A stretch of 64,000 nt of DNA from Eledone cirrhosa (taxonomy: Eukaryota), in the NCBI GenBank assembly GCA_964016885.1, contig OZ024742.1, forward strand, positions 209,312,001 to 209,376,000, read 5' to 3'. How positions within the stretch are numbered: position 1 is the stretch's first letter; every line of letters starts with the position of its first letter. The position numbers and the translations under genes are program-made. Below, one piece after another: positions 8,821 through 54,055 of the stretch. The notes below the pieces were generated by a model. The model was given only the letters and a program-made list of their open reading frames with translations, was not told the DNA's origin and did no database searches.

Positions 8821-10528
8821 ATTATTATTGTATTATATTATTACTGATAGGCGCGTATGGTGGTGCAAGAATACCATGTAGGAATACATAAAAAAAAATT
8901 ATTATTTCCACGGACACACTATCTAACCCCAACAGTGTAATATATTTCTGCTTCTAGTGCTCGAACGAGCTGATCTACACAACTGGAAATTACTTGGGAC
9001 TACCCAGAGGTTGTAACTCTATGTAGGGTAATGTGTGCCCAAGTAGAGAAGAGATCTTCCTACGAACCTTAACTCTAGATTATGAAGATTCCGATCGCAG
9101 TCTATTTAAAACTATTCAAAAAAGTTTCCAGTATTAATGTTTCAACCAAAAAGTAACATTTAATTATCAAATTTAAGAACTCATAAATTATAGTGTAAAA
9201 ACCATTTTTCCAGGGCAAAGTTGATTTCTTTCAGCAATGCCTCCCGTTAACAGTTTGTGATGTTTTTTTGTGTTTGGTTTTTGTTACAGTATTGCGTCTC
9301 TTTGTTGTCAATCATACATGATGATGGGTCCTGAATTGGTTTCGTCGATGAGAACTCATTTGTTCAATTAAGTGAGCGTCCAACTCGTGAAATAGTGCAT
9401 AGGTGGTTGAATATTCCCAAGCCGAACAACATGAGTTAAGTATTGAACCTTTGAATTGCAGGTACGATCTATCCAACAGGCTTACACACTAGTTCCATTT
9501 TGCCATTCATAAGGCTTGAGTCGATCCAAGACCCATGACACTTTCTCAAAATGCCAAGCAATGGGATCGAACCCTAGAACTCTTGGTTGCGAAACCATGT
9601 TCGTAACCCCTGCGTCCACCACCGTACAACACAATAAAATATAGATCCGAAAACCTAAATTAATACTTTCTCTAGAACAGATATTCATTCAACATTGTTT
9701 TTGTTTTGTTTTTTGTTGCTTCTTTGTTGTTTACTATGTGTTAATAATAGTACTCGAGGATTATTCAGTTTTTAATTTTCTTTTATCTATAGAAGCCAAA
9801 TTCCTTAAATATTTACAAAAAGTGAGTGATGGCTTTTGTCAGTATCTTGTTTATAGTATATAAATCATTATGCTATTGAAACATGAATTAAATTTTCATT
9901 ACCTCGATAAATTTAGCGTTAAAATAATTCACTTCATGAAGTGTTTATTGTGTGATTATCATTTCACTTAAAGTCGTATGCATATCTATAACTATGCACT
10001 TGTGAGTATATGTCTGTGTGTTAAGGAGACGGATACAATTACATATTGAGATAAAACAGAGACGGGGAGATAAAGAAACACAAACAGATACAAAGTGAGA
10101 AATGATAAAATTTGGCTGAGATACGTATAATATAAGGTCAATAGTGCAATCGAATATAATTAATTTCAACCGGTTTTATAACTTTTCGATAATTATTCAC
10201 CCGAAATGATTTTTGCTTTTGTTAAAGAAGCAACAGAAGAGCTCAATCCATCAATTGTAACATATTTTTCATTGAAAAACACTTTTTCATAAAAGAATAG
10301 TCACGTGCTTTGTTCATTTGTCTTCCTTTTTACTATAGTCGAAAAAGGGTGGGGGTAGAGTTTGCAAAGTTCATCTCCACCAATTACTCATGCATTGGAG
10401 ATTGATTTTTGACAATAACAATAAAAAGATTAAGTCCAGTTTTTCGATGAGTAATGCAGGAATTAAAGAATAGATTAAACCCTATTGTATCCGCACGTTA
10501 TTTTGATGGTATTATTCTTATTGGAAAG

Positions 10529-11250
10529 GGGCGGTGGATTGGCAGTATTGGTAGAAGGTCGGACGCCATGCTTTGACGCATAGTTATGGCACATGCCATT
10601 CTGAGTTCAAATCCCGCCGGGGTTAACTTTGCCTTTCAACCTTATAAGGTCGATAAAATGAAGTACCAGTAATGCACTGTGTAATTGCTGCCTTGTGCAA
10701 AAAGTAGAAACAATTATTCTTATTGGAGACGGAGGGCGGTGGATATGCAGAATCGGTAGAGCGTTGGACAACATGCTTAACAGCATAGAGTTGCGGCCTT
10801 TTACATTCTGAGTTCAAATCCCGCCGAGTTTAGCTTTGCGTTTACGGGGTCGATAAAATAAAGTACCAGTAATGCACTGGGATCAATTTTATCGACTTTC
10901 CCCCTTCCCCAAAATTGTTGTGCAGAAATCAGAAAGCATTATTCTTATTGAAAAGGAAGTAGATTGGTGATATCGATAGATCATCAGACAAAGATCCTTG
11001 CGCTATTTAGTTATATGCCTTTACGCTTAAATTTCAACTACTGACATGCCCACCTCTTAAATTTCAGAACCTATGCCAGAAATTATTATCATTGGGCTAT
11101 TTCCGGCTCTTTGTGTTCTTAGTTCAACTTTCACCATTTTTTTATATTATTATTCCGGTGTCGATGAAATAAAGTACCAATAGTACAGGGGTAGATAAAA
11201 TTGATTTTTTTTTCTCTATAAAATTGCTGGCCTTGTGCTTATATCATTAT
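10529..11250 (+). mobile_element. Head-to-tail cluster of about four tRNA-derived SINE copies (10529-10718, 10734-10944 and two degenerate units)
   Basis: A box tggcagtattgg, B box gagttcaaatcc, central ttgcctttca..cctta..gggtcgataaaataaagtaccag domain, tail ccttgtg...agaaacaattatt. Units are joined by att-rich linkers. Confidence 0.88.
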
Positions 11251-28830: not shown

Positions 28831-29126
28831 TTCTAGTCCTGTAGAATCTCATCTATATTAAAACTTTTATACTCTGCAATGTATTGAGTACCTTACTTAC
28901 TGTGGTTACCTCCGACTCAACCCGGAATAACGTATATATATATATATATATTTGTGTATGTAAATGCTTATGTGAATGGATGAGTGAATAATTATATACA
29001 TTTATATACATATTATATGTATATATTTATACACACACACCTATGTATGTATGTATGTATGTATGCATATATATATATATATATGTATATTTATATACAT
29101 ATATATATGTTATATATATATATAAT

Positions 29127-29996
29127 AAATAGTTTTTTTTCGCTCTACATAGCTGAATATAATAAATGCTATCTGAGATTTTCGAATATTAATAATAATA
29201 TTCGATTCCTTTGCAAATATGCAAACAGCCTGTTTAAGCCATGTCAGTAGAATGACTCCATCATTCTTGCGCTTGTGTTGGCAGACACTAATGGCAGACA
29301 CTAATGTTTCTGGGTGATTACCCGTCATCAGTAGCATATATTGTTTACTTATCAACTGTCAGAACTAGTGAAAATATATGATATTTTCTAAAATATACGG
29401 TGACTGATCGGCTCCATTTGCATATTAGCAGACTGCCTGATCGGTCGGATTTGTATATCAGCAGACTGGCCAGTCAGTTCCATGTATACGAGATTAATGG
29501 CCAGCTTTGCCTTATTCAAATTCATAACAAATAGTTTTATCGCTCTACATGGCTGAATACAATAAATGTAATCTGGGTATTTTCAATAATAATTGTTTCT
29601 ACTTTTTGGCACAAGGCCAGCAATTTAACCAGTGTATCACTGGTACTTTATGTTATCGACTCCGTAAGGATGAAAGGCAAAGTTAACTTCGGCGGGATTT
29701 GAACTCAGTCCGTAAAGGGACGTAACTGTGCTGGAAAGCATTGCGTCCGACCCTCTACCGATACTGCCAATCCACCGCCCTAATAATAATAATATTCGAT
29801 TCGTTTGCAATTATGCAAACAGACTCCTTAAGCCATATCAGTAGAATGACTCCGCCATTCTTGCTCTTGTCTTGGCAGACACTAATGTTTCTGCATGATT
29901 AACCTCCATCAGTACCGTATACTCTTTACCTGCCAACTGTAAAAGCTAGTGAAAATATATATTTTCTGAAATATACAGTGACTGATCGGCCTTATT

Positions 29997-30000
<4 letters not shown>
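29127..30000 (+). repeat. Tandem duplication (about 29127-29430 and 29529-30000); the second copy carries a SINE insertion
   Basis: Shared cgctctacat.gctgaata.aataaatg...aatattcgatt...gcaaacag...cagtagaatgactcc...gtgactgatcggc. Confidence 0.9.
29593..29780 (-). mobile_element. Full-length tRNA-derived SINE inserted in (AAT)n
   Basis: Head gggcggtggattggcag at 29780, tail at 29593, aataataat on both sides. Confidence 0.92.
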
Positions 30001-33784: not shown

Positions 33785-33974
33785 AATTGTTTCTACTTTT
33801 GGCACAAGGCCAGCAATTATTCCAGTGCATTACTGGTACTTTATTTTATCGACCCCGTAAGGATGAAAGGCAAAGTTAACCTCGGCGGGATTTGAACTCA
33901 GATCATAAAGGGAGGTAACTCTATGCTTCAAAGCATGGCGTCCGACCCTTACCGATACTGCCAATCCACCGCCC
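33785..33974 (-). mobile_element. Full-length tRNA-derived SINE
   Basis: A box, B box, central domain and tail as in the other copies. Confidence 0.92.
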
Positions 33975-34990
33975 TTATAAGCTATAATATAGAGTTTGTA
34001 GAATGAATAATTATTTATCTTGAGTTCCAATGTCAAAACATTTGCTAATCTCTTGAAACAGCTTGCGTTAGAAACTAATCTGACATCTTTTTCATTAGAC
34101 ATTATTTTTAGCTTTTAACCTACACTAATCAATCGATTCCCAGACGTTGAAAAACAAAATAACATTAGGCGTAAACTTATTTTTTTATGATTTCTTTTCA
34201 GATTCTAACACCAATGTGTTTAGTATCTTGTTTCCAAGAATATAACTATTTCTTCTCATAACTTAAAATACTTTTTTTATTATTTTTACATGTGGACATT
34301 TTCCCTCTTCTTCCATATTTCCCTTATCAATTTTACGTAGTCTTTTCTTTCGGCTTTTGCTTACTTTTTCTTCTGTTTCTTAAACATATTTTTTTACAAC
34401 TCCTTTGCACTTTTACGTATTTATTCTTCTTATTTCTCTCCCATTGCTTCAGCACAGTAATTTGTTATTTTTGTCAATATATATGTATATGTAAATACAT
34501 TTTAGAGATGTGTGAGAGAGAAATGGAGATAAATAAATAACACGATGATATATATAATAGTGAGGAAAATTGAAGTTGCAGCTGCGATTAGCCTTTTTCG
34601 AAATCAATCTTCAGAAACTAGCACGAATTACTCAATGAGATGATATCAGTCAATCAATAAATTATAGCTCAGAATAACAATATGTTAGGGGTGTGACACA
34701 GTGAACATTGCGACCGGAGAGATGTTGCCACAAAAACCACCACAACAACGAAAATGCAATCAGGTTAAAGACGAACATGGACCTGATCGATAGATATTAT
34801 ATAAATATCTTCTACTGGATTCTGGGAGTCCGAACGCTTGACTCAAATTTGCGCAATATGCAAGTCAGTAATGTATCCTAAGATGGAACGAGGATATTCC
34901 TTTCTCAACAGACGTTTCGTTCCATTATCCACTAGCGCGGCTTAGTAGATCCACTGTTAAGCACTGTAGCCGTAATGTTGGCAGGGGGGT

Positions 34991-35168: not shown

Positions 35169-35211
<43 letters not shown>

Positions 35212-35454
35212 TTTTCTTTTTTAACCACAAGGGTTCACATAAAGTAGACATTAAGGACAGTACAGGACAATACAGGACGGTACAAATGGGCATTTCTGCG
35301 TGTAAAAAAAACAGAGGTTGAAATAAAATAACAAAGAAAAATTCCCCAATAGGGGGGAGACTTCCAAGGGACATTTGTGGAGAAAGCCCATTAAAAGACC
35401 ACAGTGGCCCTGACCACCAGGGCAAGTGCCCTCTCCCAGTTTTCCACCTTTAAT

Positions 35455-38400
35455 TTACAGACACATACTCAGAGAAGGCCCATTCATTCGGGCCATACTT
35501 GCTTCTCTCACCCATCTTTCAACAAAATGCTGGGAAGAGAGCACTTCCCTCTCTACCCTGATTTTCCTTTTCAAATGAAATTTGAAAAAGTTAATCAGGG
35601 CATCACCGAAGAGGTAAGTGCTCGTCTTCAGCCCTTTCAAACGTGTCCACCATACTATCTCTTTCGCCATGGCCACCAGACAGATAAAAACTGCCTGCCC
35701 TTCCAGGCTAAAGGAAGGGGGCGGGGCAATCCTCACGATGGACTCAGCTGATAGCTGGATCCGTCCTACACGTGACAGCAGGTGTTCGACATAAACCCAC
35801 AAGTCAGCAATGCTCGGACACTGGACGAGTGCGTGCAGGACGGTTTCGTCGCCCTGCGCGCATCTCGGACATGCCCGGCTGACGGCACCTCCATGCCTGT
35901 AGAGTTTATCCCGAACTGGCAAAGCTCCTCGGTAGCACTGCCAGGCCAGGGATTTCTGGAAGTTGTCCATAGGCCCCGGCCCGAAAGTCCTTCCGAAGAG
36001 ATTGGCTAGTTGATTTTCGTCGACGCCTAGAGTTTCTCCAAGTACGTCGTCGCTCTTCCCCTCCACTAATCCCCTATCGAACGCCAAGGTGGAGTTTCCA
36101 CCGATCACATTGCCCGATTGGTCGAGGGCTGTGAGCGCCTGAAGACATTCCAGTCTCCAAGCGCTCCCTCTCGGTCTTCGCTTGACCCAGGACTGCAGCT
36201 CCGTCAAGGAGACGAGCTGGGGAAAAACGTGTCTTGCAAACGGCGACCACACCTGATCACCGTCGAGGAAGAGGTGGAGATGTCGTAGCCTGAGCGCGTG
36301 TCTGCGCATCATCAGCCACGGCATGCCCAGCCCTCCACGTAGCGGGTGTTGACAGCAGATGGACCGCCTGACCATCGGAGCGCGTCCCTTCCACAAGAAG
36401 CGAAAGAGCAAACGCTCCAGCGCAGTCAGGCGGGGCTTAGGACAAGGTACGACGGTCAGGCGGTAGTAGATGACGGATGCGATGTACGCATTCGCCACCT
36501 CCGCTCGACCTTTCAGGGATAGCTTCCTCTCGGCCCATTTCTGGGTGAGAGAAGCCACCCTGCTCGTCACCTCGTCCCAGTTTTTGTCCGTCTGGAGGTC
36601 TGGACCGAACCAGACCCCTAGCAATTTAACCGGTCCGTCCGTCCAGCGCCCGACGACGCTGTTGGACGGCATGGACCTGCCTCTCCAGGTGCCGAGCTGC
36701 AGGCCCACTGACTTTTCCTGGTTGATCATTGCTCCTGTCACCGCTTCGTATTCTCTTAGTGTAGTGCCGATCGCCTCGATGTGTTTGGCGTTCGACACCA
36801 CTACGGTGACATCGTCGGCATATGCTGACACGGATCTTCCGCATCCTAGTTCGCGCGGGACCCCCCTCAACGTCTCCAGTTTGTGCAGTAATGGCTCGAG
36901 AGTCAATACGTACAATAGGGACGAGAGGGGACATCCTTGGCGGACCGAGCGCATGATGTTGAACGGTTCCGAAAGGTGACCGTTCACTCTCACTACAGAG
37001 CAGATGTCGCTGTGCATGGCAGCGATCCAGCCTCTGAAGACGGGCCCAAAGCCAGCCGCCCTCAGGACTGCCGTTAGGTAACGATAGTCGACCCTATCGA
37101 AGGCTTTCGACTGATCTAAATTGATCAAAGACCCACCCGTGCCAGGTTCCCTAGCTACCCTCTCTACGATGTATCGCATGAGGTGGAGGTTGTCGTGGAT
37201 GGATCTGTCGGGAATGGCGCATGTCTGTGCCTCTCCCACCAGACCACCAACGACAAGCGCCAACCTCTTTGCTAGCACCTTGGCCAAAATCTTGAACTCT
37301 GTGTTTAGCAGAGTTATGGGCCTAAAATTATCTATGTTATCCCCCTTGTTCGGATCCTTTCTCAGCAGCGCCACCGCTCCTCGGCTCACAGAGCTGGGAA
37401 TTCTCCCGTTCTGTTGCCAGTTGCAGTAGACGTCCGCCAAGAGGCCTCCGAACAAGTTTGGCATGTGTACGTAAAGTTCATAGGGCAGACCATCCAAACC
37501 AGGCGATTTACCCCTTGTGCAACTAGTCATTGCATCCCGTACTTCAGCGGTTGTTATCGGCTTTTCGCAACACTCCGCCTCAGTGGCTGAAAGCCGCGGC
37601 AGTCCGTCGAGGTAGACACTAAAGTCCATCCCTCGATCCGGCCTGCCACTGCCCAAGAACAGTTGAGCGAAGTGTCGCTGAAAAGCTTCACACATTTGCC
37701 CGGGATCGAGTAGCATGCGCCCGTCGTGGTCCACCAAAGACCGGATCGTGGCTTTGTTGCCACGACGCGCCTCCGCCACTCGGGCCCATTGAACGGCTTT
37801 CGTCCCCTCGTGTCTGAGAGCACGCACCCTAGCTCTGACAACGCAGCCTTCGTTCTTTGCATTGAAGAATTGGTCAAGGGCCAATTTCGCCGCAAGTACG
37901 TCGGTCGCGATGCCTTTGCTAAGCGCCTCATCTAATTTTCTAACTAATTCTCCCTCTGCTCTATTTTTCTCTATTGCTAAAGTCTTACTAAACCTAATGG
38001 GCTCTATTCTAATTGCTCTTTTCAGAGCAAACCACCACTTGTTGTTGACGATGGCCCCCGTCAACGCCCGCTTAGCTAGTTCGCTAATCCGGTCTCTGTA
38101 GGCCTTGCGCGCTGGTAAGGACGCGTTTAACTTCCAGTAGCCGGGTCCTCATCTATGAAGCCTATCTAAGTCAAGCACACAGATCACGAATTTGTGGTCC
38201 GTGTAGCTGACTATCTTGAATTGTGGACAGCCTATGCTAGACCTATCTATTTCCCTACAAAATACTCTATCTAGATATGATCTGGATGACCCTATGCGAT
38301 TTGTCCAAGTCCACATTGGTACATTCGGGAAATCCATTCGGTACCTGTCAGACAGTTCAAAACGTCTGAGCAGGTTGGTGAGACTCTTGCACCCTCCTTC

Positions 38401-38874
38401 CCTATCCACTAATCCCACACAATCCCAGCGTGCATCTAAGATCCCGTTCCAGTCGCCCACTAACACTAAAGAGCGGGACGTTCCAAGAAAGGTCTCCAGA
38501 CGCCGGAAGAAATCAGGCCGCCCTGCTCCTGTCGGGGCATAGACGGCCACTAACCTGAAAGCTTGCCCGTCTCCGCTGGTCACGTCTAGCACCACCAACT
38601 TACCTTCTGGGTCCAGGAAGATGGCCCGTATGGCAAGATCCAAACCTCTCCGAAAAAGCACAGCAACTCCTCCCCCCGATCCCGGACGGCTGGGAGATGC
38701 GTACACATCGTAGCCGCCGAAGATCGGTGCGAAAGCCTGTGCTTCGGAGATTCTGGTCTCGCTGATGGCCACTACATCTATGTTAAGTGACCTGAGGTCG
38801 TTGAGCAGGTGGCCCTGCTTCCATGACGACCCCAAGCCACGCGCATTTATGCTGCCTATTCTGAGTGAGGTCAT
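35455..38874 (-). pseudogene. Copy A ORF2 (APE endonuclease, RT, C-terminal CCHC), 1139 codons with one in-frame TGA at 38149-38151
   Basis: SINARGL, ISETR, AVYAP, VGDWNG, SYLDRVF, TDHK; GKSPGLDG, FRPITLLN, LDQSKAFDRV, VRQGCPLS, AYADD; CPRC...HALVQC. The two listed ORFs share one frame. Confidence 0.95.
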
Positions 38875-38908
38875 GTTGAAAAGGAGTGGAAAAGATGGGA
38901 AAGACCAC

Positions 38909-40764
38909 TTACCTTACTTCTCGTAGGGGAAGGACGGCTTTTCCATCCTTTTCACTGCTTGTGGCCTCCTCAGGAAGGATGTCCTTATAAATCCTCCTGG
39001 AGAGTGCTTGTCGGAAGTCTCCGATGTCTTTGGGGAATTTTTGTTTTAGTGTCATGTACGTTTTCTGTGTGATGCGAGTGATTTGTATGTGTGGAGGTGG
39101 TGTGAATTTTGGGGTTGTTGTGTAGTCTTTTTCTGTGATGCTGGTGTTGTGTTGGATGTAGTGTAATAATTGCTTGTTGTTCAAATTTAATGCTGTGTAG
39201 TGTGTATCGTTTTGGTTGTTTTGTTTTGTTTGCGTTTGTTGTGGGTTTGTTTCTGTTTCGCATTTTGGTGACTTTTGTGGTGTAGGTGATTGTGGTGCTG
39301 GGGATAATGATGGTGATGGTGTTGGTGTTTGGGTTGATGGGGTTGGTGATGCTGGTGTGGATGGTGGCATATCTGTCCTAACTTTTTTGTTTCTTAGTTT
39401 ATTTGTTTCCCTCTGTATTTTGTTTTTGGAGGGGGAAGGAAGAGAATTTTTTCTTTTTTGGTTTCTTTTTTTTTTTCCGGATATCGTTTCCCACTCCTCG
39501 TCGTCACAATCTGTCTCCAGTTGTGATAGGCCGGGGAGTGGAAAATCCTCCACAGCCGTTAGTTTTGGTTGTGGTGTGGTGGGTGGTGTAGGCGCTGGTG
39601 CTAGTTCTGAAGCGTTGGGTGGTGGTGGTGTTGGTTTTGCTGGTGGTGGTAGTGGTGTTGGTTTTGCTACTGTTGCTGGGGTTGTTGCTGTTATAGTTGC
39701 TTCTGTTGTTGCTGCTACAGTTGTTGCTGGCCTCTCTGCTACTGGTGGTGTTGATGGTTGTGTCACTGGGGTGGGTAGGAGAGGTGGCCTCAACCTTTTA
39801 GCCTGAGGGCAGAAAGCCCTTAGGTGGGTTCCTTCACCACAAACGACACACCTAGGTCTTCTGCCCTCGACAATTACCGTGAGGTGGCTGCCGTCAGTGA
39901 GGTCTATTACCTCTGGGATCTCCTCAATGCTTTTTTGGTCCGCTTGGATCAGGAGCTCCATCCCAGATCCGGACCAGTTTTCCTGCTTTTCTTTTGCTAT
40001 TGTTATTATTTTCGTGTTGGCCTCGATGCCGGCGATGACAGCCGCTATTAGCCAGGGAATTTCGATGGCCGGTGGAACGTGGGTCACCCTGATCTTTACG
40101 AGTCTCTGGCCACAATAGCTTGGGACGAGTGTGAAGTCGTCACTTTTTAATGGGGCCATGGAGTGTTCTCTAGCCTCCTCTGGTGTTTCAAAGAACACAT
40201 CCACGGTTCCATACTTTTTCCCACGTCTGATGTGGGTTTTTCTTGCCCACACATGTCCCAAAGCTTTTTGGATTTGGGACTCGGATGCCCGTTCCACTCG
40301 GCGCGATTTTACATTTATTGTTCTATACGACACGGTGCACAGGCGCCGATGCTCCATTTTATTAGGTGGGGGGTGAGGCTGACCCTGTACCCATCTTTCT
40401 TTACCATTTGTTTGGCATTTTCTAAATCTTCTTGAGTTACCGTGAACGCTTCGAATTGTTTTGCTACGATGGCGAAACTGAGGGTCGGTTTTATAATGTC
40501 ATTGTTGTTGTTGTTGCTATCGTTGATATTAATTTTATTTTCAGTTCTGGTGGTGGTGACGTCAGTCGTCTTTGGTGGGGAAGAGTCCATTTTGCTTGAT
40601 TTCATTTCGACGTCACGAGTTAATTTATTTTTTTCTTCTTTTGTTTCTGTTGTCGCGGTGGTGGTGGTGGTGGTGGTGGTTGTCGCGGTGGTGGTGGTGG
40701 TGGTAGAGGGTTTAACACCTGCAGTCATTGGTAATGGCGGGAAATGAATGTCTGCCTGAGACAA
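38909..40764 (-). pseudogene. Copy A ORF1 (gag-like, CCHC zinc knuckle), one frameshift near 40365
   Basis: CVVCGEGTHLRAFC knuckle, Pro/Thr-rich linker and basic KKKRNQKRK stretch. ORFs 40315..40764 and 38909..40357 overlap near a C-run. Confidence 0.9.
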
Positions 40765-41108
40765 ATTTAAAATATTGCTACTGCTTATATTTTTTTTGTG
40801 TTGGCAAACGTAGTAACATTTACAATGGTGGTGTCGGTGTGAGGTGTTATTTTGTGAGGAAGGCTTTCAGCTGCTTCGTGCAGAGGGGAATTAGCCATTT
40901 TTTTTTCAAAGAAATTTTTGGATAATAATAAAAGTTAAAATTTTGGGCACAAAGCCCCAATCTTTTTGGGTGTCCTTTTCGGAAAACAATGTATGTGTGC
41001 TTATAAACAGTTTACAATAAAATTTTCCATAAATGGCAATTTTTAAACAAACGGAAATAACAAACCTTTGCGGAGCTCACGATAATACGATTTCCTACGT
41101 AGGTCGCC

Positions 41109-41138
<30 letters not shown>

Positions 41139-41140
<2 letters not shown>

Positions 41141-41494
41141 TTTCCTTATTAACCACAACGGTTTACATAAATTAGACATTAAGGACAGTACAGGACAATA
41201 CAGGGCGGTACAAATGGGCATTTCTGCGTGTAAAAAACAAGAAACAGAGGATGTAATAATAGGACAATGAAAAAATTCCCCAATAGGGGGGAGACTTCCG
41301 AGGGACATTCGTGGAGAAAACCCATTAAAAAGCCACAGTGACCCTGACCACCAGGGGAAGTGCCCACCTTTAATTTACAGACACATACACAGAGCCATTC
41401 TTGCCTCTCTCACCCATCTTTCAACAAAATGCTGGCAAGAGAGCACTTCCCTTTCTACCCTGATTTTCCTTTTCAAATGAAATTTGAAAAAGTT
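41139..41494 (-). mobile_element. Tx1 copy B: 3'-terminal ~350 bp only, two small internal deletions, bounded by (AAT)n
   Basis: Matches 35211-35595. (aat)n at 41109-41138 and 41495-41548. Confidence 0.95.
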
Positions 41495-41513: not shown

Positions 41514-41550
<37 letters not shown>

Positions 41551-41798
41551 TTTCTTTATTAACCACAAGGGTTTACATAAAGTAGACATTAAGGACAGTG
41601 CAGGACAATACAGGACGGTACAAATGGGCATTTCTGCGTGTAAAAAACAAAAACAGAGGATGTAACAAAAAAATAACAATGAAAAATTCCCCAATAGGGG
41701 GAGACTTTGGAGGGACATTTGTGGAGAAAGCCCAGTAAAAGGCCACAGTGACCCTGACCACCAAGGCAAGTGCCCTCTCCCAGTTTTCCACCTTTAAT

Positions 41799-44700
41799 TT
41801 ACAGATATATACTCAGAGTAGGCCCATTCACTCGGGCCATTCTTGCTTCTCTCACCCATCTTTCAACAAAATGCTGGGAAGAGAGCACTTCCCTCTCTAC
41901 TCTGATTTTCCTTTTCAAATGAAATTTGAAAAAGTCAATCTGAGCATCACCGAAGAGGTAAGTGCTCGTCTTCAGCTCTTTCAAACGTGTCCACCATACT
42001 ATCTCTTTCGCCATGGCCACCAGACAGATAAAAACTGCCTGCCCTTCCCGGCTAAAGGAGGAGGATGGTGCAATCCTCAAGATGGACTCAGATGATAGCC
42101 GGATCCGTCCTACACGCGACAGCAGGTGTTTGACATAAACCCACAAGTCAGCAATTTTCGGACACTGGACGAGTGCGTGCAGGATGGTTTCGTCGCCCTG
42201 CGCGCATCTCGGACATGCCCGGCTGATGGCACCTCCATGCCTGTAGAGTTTATCCCGAACTTGGAAGGCTCCTCGGTAGCACTGCCAGGGCAGAGATTTC
42301 TGGAAGTTGTCCATAGGCCCTGGCCCGAAAGTTCTTCCGAAGAGATTGGCTAGTTGATTTTCGTCGACGCCTAGAGTTTCCCTAAGTACGTCGTCGCTCT
42401 TCCCCTCCACTAATCCTCTATAGAACGCCGAGGTGGAGTTTCCACCGATCACCGATCTGAAAATACCCACTTCTGGGTGAGAGAAGCCACCCTGCTCGTC
42501 ACCTCGTCCCAGTTTTTGTCCGTCTGGAGGTCCGGACCGAACCAGACCCCTAGCAATTTAACCAGTCCGTCCGTCCAGCGTCCGACAACGCTGTTGGACG
42601 GCATGGACCTGCCTCTCCAGGTGCCGAGCTGCAGGCCCACTGACTTTTCCTGGTTGATCATTGCTCCTGTCATCGCTTCGTATTCTCTTAGTGTAGTTCC
42701 GATCGCCTCGATGTCATTGGCGTTCAACACCACTACGGTGACATCGTCCGCATATGCTGACACGGATCTTCCGCATCCTAGTTCGCGCGGGACGCCCCTC
42801 AACGTCTCCAGTTTGTGCAGTAATGGCTCGAGAGTCAATACGTACAAGAGGGACGAGAGGGGACATCCTTGGCGGACCGAGCGCATGATGTTGAACGGTT
42901 CAGACAGGTGACCGTTCACTCTCACCACAGAGCAGATGTCGCTGTGCATGGCAGCGATCCAGCCTCTGAAGACGGGCCCAAAGCCAGCCGCCCTCAGGAC
43001 TGCCGCTAGGTAACGATGGTTGACCCTATCGAAAGCTTTCGACTGATCTAAATTGATCAAGGACCCACCCGTGCCAGGTTCCCTAGCAACCCCCTCTACG
43101 ATGTATCGCATGAGGTGGAGGTTGTCGTGGATAGATCTGTCGGAAATGGCGTATGTCTGCGCCTCTCCCACCAGACCACCAACGACAAGCGCCAACCTCT
43201 TTGCTAGCACCTTGGCCAAAATCTTGAACTCTGTGTTTAGCAGAGTTATGGGCCGGAAAATATCTATGTTATCCCCCTTGTTCGGATCCTTTCTCAGCAG
43301 TGCCACCGCTCCTCGGCTCACAGAACTGGGAATTCTCCCGTTCTGTTGCCAGTTGCAGTAGACGTCCGCCAAGAAGCCTCCGAACAAGTCTGGCATCTGT
43401 AGGTAAAGTTCATAGGGCAGACCATCCAAACCAGGCGATTTACCCCTTGTGCAGCCAGTCATTGCCTCCCTTACTTCAGCGGCTGTTATCGGCTTTTCCC
43501 AACACTTCGCCTCAGTGGCCGAGAGCCGCGGCAGTCCGTCGAGGTAGACACTAAAGTCCATCCCTCGACCCGGCCCACCGCTGCCCCCGAACAGCTGAGC
43601 GAAGTGTCGCTGAAAAGCTTCACACATTTGCCCGGGATCGAGTAGCATGCGCCCGTCGTGGTCCACCAAAGACCGGATCGTGGCTTTGTTGCCACGACGC
43701 GCCTCTGCCACTCGGGCCCATTGAACGGCTTTCGCCCTCTCGTGTCTGAGAGCACGCACCCTTGCTCTGACAACGCAGCCTTCGTGTTTTGCATTGAAGA
43801 ATTGGTCAAGGGCCAATTTCGCCGCAAGCACGACGATCGTAATGCCTTTGCTAAGCGCCTCGTCTAATTGTCTAACTAATTCTCCCTCTACTCTATTTTT
43901 CTTTATTGCTAAAGCCTTACTAAACCTAATCGATTCTATTCTAATCGCTCTTTTCAGAGCAAACCACCACTTGTTGTTGACGATGGGCCCCGTCAACACC
44001 CGCTTAACTAGTTCGCTAATCCAGTCTCTGTAGGCCTTGCGCGCTGGTAAGGACGCGTTTAGCTTCCAGTAGCCGGCTCCTCGTCTATGAAGCCTATCTA
44101 AGTCAAGCACACAGATCACGAATTTGTGGTCCGTGTAGCTGACTATCTTGAATTGTGGACAGCCTATTCTAGACCAATATATTTCCCTACAAAATACTCT
44201 ATCTAGATATGATCTGGATGACCCTATGCGATTTGTCCAAGTCCACATTGGCACATTCAGGAAATACAATCGGTACCTGTCAGACAGTTCAAAACGCCTG
44301 AGAAGGTTGGTGAGGCTCTTGCACCCTCCACCCCTATCCGCTAATCCCACACAGTCCCAGCGTGCATCTAAGATCCCGTTCCAGTCGCCCACTAACACTA
44401 AAGAGCGGGACGTTCCAAGAAAGGTCTCCAGACGCCGGAAGAAATCAGGCCGCCCTGCTCCTGTCGGGGCATAGACGGCCACTAACCTGAAAGCTTGCCC
44501 GTCTCCGCTGGTCACGTCTAGCACCACCAACTTACCTTCTGGGTCCAGGAAGATGGCCCGTATGGCAAGATCCAAACCTCTCCGAAAAAGCACAGCAACT
44601 CCTCCCCCCGATCCCGGACGGCTGGGAGATGCGTACACATCGTAGCCGCCGAAGATCGGTGCGAAAGCCCGTGCTTCGGAGATTCTGGTCTCGCTGATGG

Positions 44701-44806
44701 CCACTACATCTATGTTTAGTGACCTGAGGTCGTTGAGCAGGTGACCCTGCTTCCATGACGACCCCAAGCCACGCGCATTTATGCTGCCTATTCTGAGTGA
44801 GGTCAC
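41799..44806 (-). pseudogene. Copy C ORF2: GTG in place of ATG and a 425-bp internal deletion at 42453-42465
   Basis: Same motifs as A; lacks the equivalent of A 36109-36533. Confidence 0.93.
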
Positions 44807-44841
44807 GTTTAAAATAGAGTGGAAAAGATGGGAAAGACCAC

Positions 44842-46934
44842 TTACCGTACTTTTCGTAGAGGAGGGATGGTTTTTCCATCCCTTTTCACTTTACCGTCTG
44901 GTGAAGGGACCGTTGAATCGTCCCTTCGGCTGGTCGTCGGCTCTTCTATGAGTATGTCCGAATATACTCTTCGGTTGATAGTTCCTCCTAGGTCTCTGAA
45001 ATCACCAACTGCGTTGGAGAATTTCGTTTTAATGTTTGTGTATTGTTTCTGTGCTATTTTTAGCAGTCTTATGTTAGTTGGCGTTTTGATTGGTGTTGGT
45101 ATTATGTAGTGGTGTTTTTAAATGTCTGTGTGTTCAATTATGTAAGTCATTAGTTTCTTGTTGTGTGTATTTATTGCCGTGCATTTGTTTTTCTGGGGGT
45201 GGGGTGTGGTTCTGCTATTTTCTTGTCGTTGTTGCTGGGTGTGTGTGTTTTGTTGTTGTCTTTGCGATGTTGGTGCTTGTGGTGGTGGTGTTGAAGGTGT
45301 TGTTGGCGGTGGGGTTGTCGCCGGTGGTGATGGTGGTGCTAGTGTGGGTGGTGATGGTGTTGGAGGTGTTGCTGCTGTGAGTCACTTTGCAGTAGACTTT
45401 ACCCTTTTTTCATTTCTTTCCTCCCTTTTCAAAGGCGACGATGCGCTGCTACTGCGTTTGTGCCTTCTTACGACCTTTTGCCATCCCTCTCCCACCTCAC
45501 ACTCCATGTCTGATTCTGTGAGGTCGGGGAGGGGTACCAGCTCCACTCTTTCACTTGTTGTTGGTAACGTTTGCACTGGAGTCTCTGTTGCAGCTGAATT
45601 TGGTATTGCTGTTGTTGTTGTTAATACTTCCACTGCTGCTGCTGTTTTTGATTTCCGTGGCGTGGGTATGGGTGCCACGGACCTATCGTTCCTGGTTCCC
45701 GCTTGTCCTGTTGCTGGTAGCCGTCGAGCCGGTTTCGGAAGGAGGGGGGTTTTCTCCTTTCTCAGGGTCTTCTCGTTGCAGAAGGCCCTGAGGTGAGTCT
45801 TCGATCCACAGCGAAAGCATTTCGGGCGTTTGCCCTCAACACTTATGGGCAGTTGAGTGCCATTATCGAAGTCTATCACATCCGGGATAGCTTCGATTCC
45901 TTCCTGGTTGGTTTGGATTAACATCTCAATGGAGGTGCCGACCCAATCTTCTTTTACTTTTTTCTGTACTTGCAGTACAGTTGTTTTGTCCTCGATTCCG
46001 ACGAGGACAGACGCGGCCAGCCAAGAAGGGGCCATCCCGGGGGGTACGTGGGTCAGTTTGACCCTCACAATTTTTTGCCCGCAGTAGGAGGGCACCAACA
46101 CCATTTCCTCGCTCCTTAGGGTCACTACGGATTGAGCCTTTGCCTCTTGGGGTGTGGCAAAAAGTACGTCTACGGTGGCATATTTCTTGCCTCGGGTGAT
46201 GTGCGTTTTCCGCTGCCACACAGACCCCAAGGCTTTTTGTATTTGAGCCTCTGTGTATCTTTCAACCCTACGGGATTTTGTACTTACTGTACGGTACGTG
46301 ACCGTACAGTGCTGTTGGGTTTCGAAAAGTGTTTCCGCTGCCTTGCAGATTGCTCGGTGTCCAGTTTTTGTCAGCATCTTCTTCGCTTCCTCTATTTCCT
46401 CATTTGTTATGAGGATTGTTTCCAGGTTCTTCGCGATACCTGCAAACGAGATGGGTTTTCTTTGCTGCTGTTGTTGTTGTCAGAGCTGCTGTTACTTTTG
46501 TTGTTGCTGCAGTTACTACGACTACTGCCGCCGCCGCTGTTGCTGTGGTTGTTGTTGTTGTTGCTGCTGCTAATGCTGTTGTTGTTTATGCTGCTGCTGA
46601 TGCTGTTGCGGCTGCTACTGTTGTTGTCATTGTCACTGCTGCTGCTGTTATTACGGCTGCTACTGCTATTATTCCTGACGTCAGACGAATGAAATGGGTT
46701 TTCGTATTTCCCGCACAACTGTTTCGTCGTTGTCGTCGTCGTCGTGGAGAAATCTTGCACGCTTTGCACGAGACTTTTCTTTTCTGTCGTCGCTTGCGAA
46801 AGAGAAAGGAGGGAGAGAGACACATTTAAAGAAGGGAGGGAGAGAGACAATCTTCTCTCTGCTGTAGTGACGATTGAGGAAGAAGAAGACGGAATGAGTG
46901 GGAGTGACCTATGATAATTCTTTTTCGTAGCCAT
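44842..46934 (-). pseudogene. Copy C ORF1 (CCHC knuckle), frameshifted with premature stops
   Basis: CFRCGSKTHLRAFC. Aligns to A ORF1 (CTVTYRT..KSRRVER..E.QIQKALG.VW.RKTHI.RGKKY.TVDV). Stop at 45382; N/S-rich microsatellite N-terminus. Confidence 0.88.
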
Positions 46935-47321
46935 GTTGTTTTTTTTGTTTGAAATAAATATTGGGCACAAAACCCCAATAAGCAGTTATTTAACCCCGAA
47001 GGGCCAAATAACGGGCAGAAAGACCCCTCTCACGAGGAGGAGGGTGATTTTGTCTACAAGTTGGTTAAAGTTTTAAACAATTTACAATTGTTATAGCGTT
47101 CAAAGTTTACAATACCTTACAGAGCCGAGCCTCCGTCAACCATAGCATTCAATAATAATAATAATAATAGTAAGTAAAATCGAAGTTGCAGCTGCGATTA
47201 GCATTTTTCGAAATCAATCTTCAGATATTGTCAACATGAATGGACCTGTTATTTTTATCAAAAGACCTTTTTTCCAATTCCATCCCTCCCGCCCCCTCAA
47301 TCTATCTTATTTCTCATTCTT

Positions 47322-48216: not shown

Positions 48217-48275
<59 letters not shown>
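48217..48275. repeat. (GATA)n microsatellite abutting the 3' end of Tx1 copy D
   Basis: Direct reading. Confidence 0.98.
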
Positions 48276-51200
48276 TTCTTTATTAGCCACAAGGGCACAA
48301 AAGAAGGGGACAAATACAAATGGGGAGTTTACATACAGGTATATGAAAATAAAACTATTAATAAAATAACAAATAACAATTGAAATCCTCAATAGGGGGA
48401 GGCGTTACACAAGGGATGTACACACCCCGAAAAAATGTACAGCCCTCATCTCCAGGAGCATCAAGAGTGAGTACACCCGGCCTCTCTTTCTCTTTTTCCT
48501 CAACCTATAGGCTTATATAGAGAGAAGGCCCAACCACTCCGGCCATCTTTGTCACATTCACCCACCTTTTATAAAATTTGCTGGGGTACAGCACGTCTCC
48601 CTCCATCCTGATTCTTCTTCCAAAATTATATTTGAAAAAACCAATTAGTTGTTCGCCGGAGAGAAAGTTGTCTGACCTCAGCCCTTTTAACCTCGTCCAC
48701 CATATAACCTCTTTCACCATAGCCATAACACATAGGAAAACCGCCTCTCCTTCGTTTTTGAAGGAGGGTGGCGGCTTGATCATGACAATGGACTCGGTAG
48801 TCAACTGGATTGGTCCCACCCGCGACAATAGTCGTTCTACATAGCCCCACAGGTCGGTAACGCCCGGGGAGTGTACAAATGCGTGCGCGACGGTTTCCTC
48901 GCCGCGCACGCATCTCGGACAGATCTTTTTCGACGGGTCCCTGCCCGGGCGCCCGTGTCTGTAGAGCTTGTCTCGAACTGGTAGAGCTCCTCAGTAGCAC
49001 TGCCAGGCCAGGGACCTTTGGAAGTTGTCCACAGGTCCCGGGTGGAAGGTTCTACCGAACAGACTGGCCAGTTTGTCTTCCTGTACGGCTAGAGTCTCTC
49101 CGGGTGCGTCGTAGCACTGGCTGCGGACCAACCTTCTATAGAATGACGAAGTGGTGTCTCCACTGATCGCCGGGTCAGCCTTCCAGAGGGCTGTGAGCGC
49201 CTGAGCACATTCGATGTTCCAGACGCCCATTTTCCTCGGTTCTTTGCTTGACCCAGGACTGAAGCTCGGTCAGCGAGACGAGTCGTGGCAATGCTCGTCT
49301 CACGAACGGGGCCCACACCGGTTGTCCGGTGAGGAATACGTGGAGGTGCCGCAGCCTGAGCGCGTGTTTGCGCATCGTCAGCCACTGAATTCTCAGCCCT
49401 CCGTTTGACGGGTGTGGGCAGGTGATGGATCTTCTCACCAAAGGAACCCGCTTCTTCCAAAGGAATTGGAAGTGTACGCGCTCCATTTTGGTGAGCGTTT
49501 TGGCTGGACAAGGCACGACGGTCAAGTGGTAGTAGATGACGGACGCTATAAAAGTATTCGCCACCGCCGCTGACCTTTGAAGGATAGTTTGCACTCGGCC
49601 CACTTCTGGGTGAGCGCAAACACCTTGGCCGCCACCTCGTTCCAGTTCTTCTCCATCTGGAGGTCCGGACCAAACCAGACCCCGAGCAGCTTTACCGGTC
49701 CTTCCGTCCAGCGCCCGACGACGCCATCGGAAGGCATCCGTTTGTCTCTCCACGTTCCGAGTTGCAAACCGACAGATTTGTCCCGGTCCAGCTTCGCTCC
49801 TGTGAACCATTTGTATTCCTTCAGTAAGGTGCCGACCTCCCCGATTTGCGAGGTCCTCGACACCATTACTGTCACTTCGTCGGCGTAGGCCGACGCCGCT
49901 TTTCGCAGTCCTAGTTCCAAAGGGATGCCCTGAAATAGCTCCAACCTCCGCACTAGTGGCGGCTCGAGAGTCAGTACGTACAAAAGGGAGGAGAGAGGGC
50001 ATCCCTGTCGGATGGATCGCGTGATATGGAACGGGTCCGAGAGGAGCCATTCACCTTGACCCTTGAGCAGATGCTGCTACTGTGCATTGCAGCAATCCAA
50101 CCCCTGAACACGGGTCCGAAGCCTGCCGCCTCGAGCACCGCATCCAGGTAACGATGGTCAACCCTATCGAAAGCCTTAGACTGATCCAAGTTGAACAGGG
50201 CCCCACCGAAGCCGGGTTTACACGCTATCCTCTCTATGATGTATCACATGAGGTGGAGGTTGTCGTGTATGGATCTGATTGGGATTGCGCATGTCTGCGC
50301 TTCTCCCACCAGGTTTTCGATGACAAGCGCCAGCCTCTTTGCCAACAGCTTGGCCAAAATCTGTAACTCAGTGTTTAGCAGAGTTATGGGGCGGAAGTTG
50401 CCTATGTCATCCCCCTTATTCTCGTCCTTCCTGACTAACGTGATTAGGCCCTTGGTCACAGAACTGTGAATTCTCCCGTTCTGTTTCCAGTTGCAGTAGA
50501 CCGTTTCCAGGAAATCGGTGAACAAGTCCTGCATTGCTACGTAAAATTCGTAGGGTAGACCGTCAAGACCTGGAGATTTGTGTTTGCCGCATTGGCTCAG
50601 CGCGTCCCCTATTTCAGCGGCCGAAATCGGCCTTTCACAGAACTTCGCCTTGCTGTCCGAGAGTCGCGGTAAGCCGTCGAGGTATGGACAGAAATCTATG
50701 GGCCCCTCCCGGCGCGCCGCCCTGCCTGAACAGGTGAGTAAAATGCCGCTGAAAGGCCGAGCACATCTGTTTGGCTCACGTATCACGCGTCCGTCTTGGT
50801 CCTTCAAAGACCGAATCGTGGACTTGTTGCCACCTTTCGCCTCCGTCACTCGGGTCCAGCTAACAGCTTTGACTCCCTCGTTTCCCAGAGCACGTATTTT
50901 GCTTTTGACAACGCAGCCTTCATGCTTTGCGTCGAAGAACTAGTCCAAGGCCGTTCTCGTCTCTAGCACGCTGGCTCCGTTGCCACTCATAAATGCCTCT
51001 TCTACTTTATCTACCAGTTCCTTTTCAATCTTATTTCTATCTAACACTAATTATTTACTAAAACCTATCGAGTCTAATCTAACTGCTCTCTTGAGAGAGT
51101 ACCACCTTCTGTTGTTGACAATGTCCCCCGTCAAGTGCTGCTTAACTAAAGTGCTAATCCGTCTACTGTAGGCTTTGTATGTCAGTAACGACAAGTTCAG

Positions 51201-51728
51201 CTTCCAGTAGCCGGGTCCCTGTCTATGGGTTTTGTCAAGGTTGACTAAGCAGGTCACTAATTTGTAATCTGATTAGGCAACTATGAACATTTGTGGACAG
51301 CTTAACATGTCCCTATCCTTCTTTCTAACTAGAACCCTATCTAGGTACGATCTAGATGTTCCACTACGATTAGTCCACGTCCACAGTGGCACAATCGGAA
51401 AATCTAGTCGATATCTATCGGCCAGGTCAAATCGGCCGATTAACTGTTTGAGGCTGTTACACCCCCCTTTATTGGAACATGCTCCCACATAGTCCCAACG
51501 TACATCTAGAATTCCATTCCAGTCTCCCACTAAAAGCAAGAAGCGGGACGTTCCCAGAAAAGTCCCTAGATGTTTGAAGAAGTCTGGCCGCGGGGTCCCT
51601 GATGGGGCATATGCGGCCACCAGCCTGAAGGCTCCACCTTCACTACCGTCAACGTCTAGGACCACCAGTCGACCCTCCGGGTCCAGATGTACTGTCTGTG
51701 TTACGAGGTCCAGGTGTTTCCGCAGCGC
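48273..51728 (-). mobile_element. Tx1 copy D: diverged sister family, 5'-truncated within the endonuclease, multiply frameshifted
   Basis: AAYAP, VGDWNG, SYLDRVL, KSPGLDG, FRPITLLN, DQSKAFDRV, AYADE. The 3' terminus cccttgtggctaataaagaaatc is shared with A-C. Confidence 0.93.
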
Positions 51729-51952
51729 CTCTTATGACTGACCATGTATCTACATCTGGAAAATTCCATTTCTATTCACAGCTTTATGTAAGTTATATTT
51801 ATATAAAGACCAGGCGTCGTCCGTGGAACAAGTCTACATTCCCTACACTACCGATATTGTTCATATTGTTCATGAGAAAGATCACAGCTGACAAATTTTG
51901 GCATTAATTTTGTCACAAACAAACTTAGATAGACATTATTTTTATTTATATA

Positions 51953-53673: not shown

Positions 53674-54055
53674 AATTGTTTCTACTTTTGACAAAGGCCA
53701 GAAATTATCTCAGTGCAATACTGGTACTTTATTTTATCGACCTCGTAATGATGAAAGGCAAAGTTAACCTCGTCGGGATTTGAACTCAGGCTGTAAAGGG
53801 ACGTAACTCTATGCTGCAAAGCATGGCCTCCGACCCTCTACTGATACTGCCAATCCACCGCCCTGGTAATGATAATTGTTTCTATTTTTGGCAAAAGGCC
53901 AGCAATTATCCCAGTGTATTACTGGTACTTTATTTTATCGACCCTGTAAGGATGAAAGGCAAAGTTAACCTCGGCGGGATTTGAACTCAGATCATAAAGG
54001 GAGGTAACTCTATGCTTCAAACCATGGCGTCCGACCCTCTACCAATACTGCCAAT
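53674..54055 (-). mobile_element. Tandem SINE dimer (53674-53863 and 53874-54055) in degenerate (AAT/GAT)n
   Basis: Two colinear copies with taatgataat linker and flanks. Confidence 0.92.

Follow-up and report, generated by a model that had tools for sequence, protein, structure and literature searches.

The window, i.e. the whole 64,000-nt stretch of Eledone cirrhosa DNA analysed here, carries copies of one SINE family together with several Tx1-type LINEs. The SINE copies include a full-length one at 29594..29781 (minus strand), which has 89.5% identity to a young copy at 33788..33975 (also minus strand), a stack of short, long and decayed copies at 10528..11250 (plus strand) with a repeated target duplication between them, and two copies head-to-tail at 53677..54055 (minus strand). 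The LINEs all lie on the minus strand: a full-length element at 35211..41108, followed by (ATT)14; a 5'-truncated 3' end at 41139..41493, flanked by two (ATT)n runs; a second long copy with a different 5' part at 41549..47150, whose 5' flank is (ATT)6; and a member of another Tx1 family, called E here, at 48273..51760 (5' end approximate), which has the same 3' hairpin motif and a (TATC)n target.

An empty and a filled site of the SINE stand close together in the window, and the pair proposed by an earlier note on this DNA is real. The empty site, aatattaataataatattcg at 29185-29204, is held by one unit of a dispersed ~300-bp repeat (29125..29480), and the SINE (29594-29781, minus strand) by another unit of it (29523..30000). 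The two units had been taken for a tandem duplication; they are similar, but only ~80% alike, and are members of the dispersed repeat. The SINE is bounded by aataataat at 29585-29593, which is on the SINE strand the (ATT)3 of the 3' copy of the target duplication, and by aataataataat at 29782-29793, the 5' flank, (ATT)4, containing the second copy. There are four ATT units before the SINE and three after it, with an exact duplication of ~9 nt. Eight other copies of the repeat were aligned over the insertion site and the SINE is absent in all eight, so we take the empty state to be ancestral. The insertion was said to lie inside an (AAT)n run. ATT flanks are indeed present on both sides, but the target on the SINE strand is a short and degenerate run of 15 nt with three perfect ATT units only. 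The orientation of the SINE is that of the Tx1 copies, as had been claimed. We also observed the repeat with the empty/filled pair (29125-30000) elsewhere as tandem or inverted pairs (loci L072, L073, L228 and L231).

The SINE is a short, non-coding element of 188 nt with a fixed 3' end and 5' truncation down to ~25 nt. The 30-mer at its 3' end has 70,130 exact matches in the 3.0 Gb of genome searched, and 121 blast segments of at least 60 nt were found in 790 kb of random sequence. Box patterns match at nt 13-24 (A-box-like) and nt 79-87 (B-box) in the young copy, and a T4 run is absent. No match of the SINE head was found with ARAGORN or to the Rfam tRNA family; the head is weakly similar to 16 tRNA-like loci, which represent four isotypes, the best match (p=0.006) being to a locus not called by ARAGORN. 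The central segment presumably resembles a Deu/Nin-type domain. An older subfamily has 25-30 additional bases ahead of the same tail, and the SINE family itself has probably been named already. A satellite with a 45-bp unit built from the SINE head extends over at least 48 kb at C1:10.316-10.364 Mb and is also seen at C1:1.982 Mb.

The SINE has no ATT or other repeat tail of its own, and its target duplication begins directly after AGAAACA. Among 30 young copies, ATTA follows the SINE in all 30 and ATTAT in 26, and 22 have exact duplications of at least 8 nt with a median of 18 nt. In a random sample of 61 copies, the sequence behind the SINE starts with ATT in 54, and 27 retain a duplication of at least 8 nt. 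The duplications begin at Y|ATTAT: at 47 of 49 sites a pyrimidine comes just before them (C at 30, against a background of 17%). Even the tail-only insertions of ~25 nt show duplications of 13-20 nt.

Head-to-tail stacks of the SINE with att/aat linkers had been reported in the window. The stacks exist, but their linkers are target duplications and not microsatellites: in the stack at 10529-11250 the linker is the repeated duplication, e.g. ATTATTCTTATTGG, as follows from stacking by reinsertion at the duplicated site. In the stacks at loci L017, L030, L345, L346 and L351 the younger or shorter copy is usually 5' of the older one. This order is expected if the upstream duplication retains Y|ATTAT while the end of the young SINE supplies an A there.

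The full-length LINE of the window encodes an ORF1 with a CCHC knuckle and an ORF2 with APE, RT and zf-RVT domains (PF03372, PF00078 and PF13966), the ORF2 having one stop. The nearest solved structure to this ORF2 is the human L1 ORF2p (E 9e-40), with R2 at 3e-20. Among named relatives of the LINE protein, one of Argonauta hians comes closest (73% across the RT region), and in an RT tree built without named Tx1 elements the window LINEs group with an Argonauta protein, apart from CR1, RTE and R4. The repeat specificity of the LINE fits Tx1. The 1152-codon ORF2 is open in five of 20 Tx1 loci that were picked by a young 3' end. The copy at 41549-47150 is 95% like its neighbour in the RT region and differs in its 5' end and ORF1, which suggests a 5' exchange between Tx1 families. 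Family E (48273-51760; also loci L364-L393) has the (TATC)n target with the tail motif kept, so that a change of microsatellite without loss of the tail appears to have taken place between related Tx1 lineages. The duplications of family E are anchored at the terminus, with a score of 15.3 versus 11.8 in permutations (n=18, p=0.0002). Inside pure repeats, the length of the duplications made by the ATT-specific Tx1 is not readable. At 19 of its loci with interrupted flanks the interruptions are mostly one-sided and not repeated at the 3' end, and are possibly later mutations; the single loci L053, L041 and L105 extend past or repeat an interruption.

The 3' tail of the SINE resembles the ends of the Tx1-type LINEs beyond chance. 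The ungapped alignment ccttgtg-N8-agaaa-N2-att, on which the earlier note had based a partnership, holds for the SINE copy at 33788-33975, and the 29594 copy has N9. In a 22-nt window, picked after the motif had been seen, the end of the SINE has 14-17 matches with three Tx1 families and 12 with a fourth (p 5e-5 to 6e-3), and 3-9 matches with five other LINE ends. Using a 30-nt window with register slack, we found a match to both SINE subfamilies for each of the six Tx1-type ends (p<0.015), one of the six (L352) being an isolated tail assigned by resemblance only. None of ten other LINE ends matches in the same test (four CR1, two RTE, two R4/Dong-like and two RNase-H-bearing), nor does an eleventh non-Tx1 end, of an RNase-H-bearing LINE with (TAAA)n, when compared by eye. 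The resemblance is thus specific to Tx1-type ends but not to the family of copies A-C, as the earlier note had it, since every Tx1 family that we examined has the motif; the best match is to the (TATC)n-targeting family E. A longer tail match in another LINE family was not found among the sampled LINE ends.

The same tails share a predicted hairpin. Its stem and loop read UGGC-CUUGU-GCCA in the SINE (29607..29619 and 33800-33812, minus strand), AACC-CUUGU-GGUU in the main Tx1 family (35223-35235, minus strand, in the full-length element) and GCC-CUUGU-GGC in the others, and the CUUGU loop is 16-18 nt before the end in SINEs and Tx1s, a position at which it is absent from the other LINE tails compared. 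In 11 hand-picked rows, three of the four stem pairs are changed on both sides. The covariation is 0.51 versus 0.20 in shuffled alignments (above all 500 of them) and at most 0.21 when the stem is slid; the rows are related and amount to about three independent changes. RNAalifold recovers the same 3-bp core stem. The prediction rests on sequence and on covariation across families: for four of five tails folded singly, the fold is not better than that of shuffled sequences, the hairpin at 29607..29619 is not the minimum-energy fold in the 29594 copy, and the stem of one Tx1-type tail (L352, L353) is only 2 bp. The SINE is without the AATAAA of Tx1. At 80 metagenome loci with distant relatives of L1/Tx1, whose best segments have 24-42% identity, no such hairpin was seen by eye before AATAAA, and the motif may be octopod-restricted. 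Contigs of three other organisms cover the SINE and the Tx1 3' UTR, one of them deeply; the coverage is too shallow for tail variants.

Could this motif have arisen by chance or by convergence at A-rich ends, so that no partner can be named from it? The motif is short, the 22-nt window is post hoc, and a local alignment of the main Tx1 family with the young SINE is not significant (p=0.085). Nevertheless six of six Tx1-type ends match against none of the ten controls, the stem changes are paired, and the tail pattern has 19,772 matches in the genome while its reversed pattern has two. We consider such a coincidence quite improbable. The shared motif suggests rather that the SINE likely borrows the Tx1 enzyme.

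The SINE targets far more loosely than the ATT-specific Tx1. The 5' ends of Tx1 come after ATT in phase in 100 of the 100 listed, out of 2,148 full-length elements, and 96 of these 100, counted by eye, adjoin at least three perfect ATT units; the 3' ends continue into long (ATT)n arrays. For the SINE, only one of 16 non-satellite rows and three of 61 random copies adjoin (ATT)3 or more. Directly after the SINE, (ATT)3 occurs in only four of 30 young and five of 61 random copies, not far from the 10% of all ATTAT sites at which it is found. Genome-wide, 3,586 of 70,130 SINE 3' ends (5.1%) continue into (ATT)5. The background at ATTA sites is 2.2% per position or 0.4% per run start, which makes a modest enrichment of 2-12x. 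The claim that the SINE shares the (ATT)n specificity of Tx1 is hence mostly wrong, ~95% of the 3' ends having no (ATT)5 after them. The SINE is not (ATT)n-specific and lands at almost any ATTAT site. A check of flanks and phase, which the earlier note had called for, gives a clear phase, with the pyrimidine before ATT in the 47 of 49 sites above, but only the modest (ATT)n enrichment. The SINE insertion has the same strand, phase and anchored duplication as that of family E, and we counted its sharp targeting difference from the ATT-specific Tx1 against the partnership.

This misfit between a loose SINE and a strict Tx1 would be removed if the true partner were an unsampled low-copy LINE, e.g. 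another RTE, an I/Nimb or a Tx1-related element, with relaxed ATTAT targeting and a longer tail match; the Tx1 resemblance would then reflect an old tail exchange. A low-copy LINE may have escaped our survey, which took in 790 kb of random sequence together with the best hits from four family searches, and only 150 of 118,945 RT candidates were scored. For O. vulgaris, the part of PMC13282606 that we used gives RTE, CR1 and L1-Tx1 13 families each with recent activity. On the other hand, no such tail was found among the repeats ending at ATTAT in the 790 kb, nor in the 11 non-Tx1 LINE ends. No repeated non-SINE family with a SINE-type tail was found either among 100 listed of 293 filtered genome matches, the filter being blind to a donor that shares more SINE sequence upstream of the hairpin. 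As to RTE in particular, the sampled RTE ends in (GAT)n and a clean long duplication was not seen for it outside (AT)n repeats; the SINE duplications start with A and have no clear upstream T stretch, unlike the signature of RTE-related SINEs as presented in PMC6007223. Overall we regard an unsampled partner as unlikely. Mobilisation by RTE itself was rejected, the SINE having neither the tail of the sampled RTEs nor the T-stretch signature.

A second candidate is an active CR1 with an (ATT)n tail, called CR1a here, which like the SINE inserts at AT-rich sites outside arrays. It is young and has many open frames of 945 codons; its C(ATT)n end is on the same strand as that of Tx1, its insertions are found outside arrays as well, and CR1-type partners are common for mollusc SINEs (PMC11481361, as far as the part cited goes). 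The existence of this element means that an ATT tail in the SINE orientation is not diagnostic. Its tail has no similarity to that of the SINE (3/22), however, and its predicted hairpin is different. No duplications were detected in 21 truncated CR1a copies (p=0.29 and 0.58), while the same scorer detects them in the SINE (n=30), where they are ~18 nt long, and in family E (n=18). The CR1a hypothesis is largely refuted by this duplication test, and we see hardly any probability left in it. In another family, CR1b, there is a resemblance, TGGCCT-GG-GCCAA, located ~25 nt before the terminus; it is not significant. We rejected CR1 as the mobiliser of the SINE, the tail and junctions being unlike those of the CR1s sampled.

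The activity periods of the SINE and Tx1 overlap, and the separation in time that would have spoken against a partnership was not seen. At least 31 SINE copies among the matches listed are identical over all 189 query bases, and 40 Tx1 3' ends are at 99-100% identity. The two elements are also nested in each other: in 14 of 76 rows a Tx1-type tail is immediately followed by the SINE, and in three of 96 a SINE tail by Tx1, counts that come from biased loci, with two sites counted twice and two rows being chimeras. Age is no guide to the choice between candidate partners, since CR1a is also young. Four chimeras of a SINE body with a Tx1 end, joined at CCTTGTG, were found genome-wide (L220-L223), as well as one junction of a Tx1 body and 3' UTR with the SINE tail (L344). 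We take the chimeras as weak evidence for the partnership, because short insertion joining by homology explains them too.

We think it likely that this tRNA-type SINE is mobilised by an octopod Tx1 via the shared 3' hairpin, with a targeting looser than that of its partner. Of the earlier proposal that it is the non-autonomous partner of the (ATT)n-specific Tx1, the Tx1 partnership is supported by the tail specificity, the covarying hairpin, the anchored duplications and the overlapping activity; the shared (ATT)n targeting is not, and the tail names no single Tx1 family. RNA polymerase III would make the SINE RNA and read into the flank, and the ORF2p of the ATT-lineage Tx1 would bind the predicted CUUGU-loop hairpin. 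The same protein may nick the bottom strand opposite Y|ATTAT, after which the 3' end could pair with the AUUAU behind the SINE in the RNA and prime reverse transcription at the target; a second nick ~18 nt away would give the duplication. The Tx1 RNA with its (AUU)n tail could base-pair along the entire overhang; this would restrict Tx1 to arrays, while just 5-6 matching bases would suffice for the tail-less SINE.

For the specificity contrast, our preferred explanation is a difference in how long the RNA-DNA pairing is, but a more relaxed, unsampled Tx1 family would explain it equally well. We speculate, with some doubt, that a single Tx1 enzyme targets at two levels of specificity depending on which RNA it carries, the endonuclease needing only Y|ATTAT. 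The (AUU)n tail might then confine Tx1 to arrays and the SINE might escape to several hundred thousand dispersed sites, which is again a tentative suggestion. If specificity is set by the RNA in this way, the 'safe-harbour' targeting of Tx1 is largely RNA-guided; and if the partnership holds, we have an animal SINE with a stringent L1/Tx1-clade tail. The predicted hairpin of 13 nt common to a strict LINE and a loose SINE makes stringent RNA recognition by an animal Tx1 ORF2p testable, and the same system makes testable the shares of endonuclease and RNA-DNA pairing in Tx1 specificity, a question relevant to the engineering of site-specific retrotransposons.

A SINE mobilised by Tx1 has a precedent in SINEU of crocodilians, and in what we cite of that work (Kojima 2015, PMC4494074) a shared tail does not appear. 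SINEU is likewise inferred to be trans-mobilised by target-specific Tx1 families (Tx1-Mar), and tandem insertions around a repeated duplication are described there as here. SINEU has snRNA heads and poly(A) tails and the present SINE a putative tRNA-type head. For SINEU-1, according to the same passages, there is no LINE with a shared 3' end and the case is argued from targets and ages, whereas a 3' hairpin is shared here; and the present SINE, compared with SINEU, targets more loosely than its partner. Kibi at (TC)n, Koshi at (TTC)n and the crocodilian Tx1 at (TTCC)n or (TTTC)n (PMC4494074) are likewise APE-RT LINEs with one microsatellite and one orientation. The targets here are (ATT)n and (TATC)n.

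Shared 3' hairpins are known from the L1 clade in other hosts. In the maize and sorghum SINEs and in SINEX-3_CR of Chlamydomonas, too, SINE and L1-clade LINE have a 3' hairpin in common whose loop is conserved and whose stem changes are compensatory, the 'stringent' type (Ohshima 2013, PMC3747384). Shared SINE tails are rare in this clade, the cited part of that paper having three cases, those named in plants and the alga. Here the host is an animal, the LINE is Tx1-type and the ends are ATT rather than poly(A). What appears to be new, as judged against the passages cited, is a shared 3' hairpin that links an animal SINE to a Tx1-type LINE, the known Tx1-driven SINE being without a shared tail.

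Among cephalopods, the octopus SINEs OK, OR1 and OR2 and 'tRNA-Core/tRNA-Deu' (PMC4824008 and PMC8967140, compared by description only and from parts of the texts) are likewise very abundant octopod elements with A and B boxes, and SINEs make up ~12% of the O. vulgaris genome in the part cited of PMC13282606. No partner LINE for OK, OR1, OR2 or other octopus SINEs was found in the literature searched, as far as its texts were available, nor was a Tx1 tail described there for any octopus SINE; an earlier description may exist in Repbase or in the first papers on octopus SINEs. The partners named for mollusc SINEs in the cited parts of PMC11481361 and PMC4758252 are CR1, CR1-Zenon, L2 and Nimb. 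In RTE-related SINEs (Nishiyama and Ohshima 2018, PMC6007223, in part) the first bases of the duplication likewise follow the repeat at the RNA 3' end; here the duplications start with ATTAT, a clear upstream T stretch is missing, and the end of the local RTE is (GAT)n.

Several other LINEs of this genome were recorded in the survey. Loci L120-L149 and L190-L219 carry the very active CR1 whose open frames have 945 codons and whose tail is (ATT)n; among the other CR1s the ends are (TTCAAAG)n within (TA)n, (AATTG)n and (AAATG)n. An RTE-type ORF with a (GAT)n end has a PHD finger (L026:2133-3014). Low-copy and decayed RNase-H-bearing LINEs end in (AAC)n or (TAAA)n (L394-L408, L442 and L444). Two R4/Dong-like families (L077:2984-6706 and L077:7767-9437; L070, L082) end in (AAT)n, the opposite strand of the same microsatellite, and their copies meet Tx1 and the SINE tail to tail, (AAT)n being a shared landing pad.
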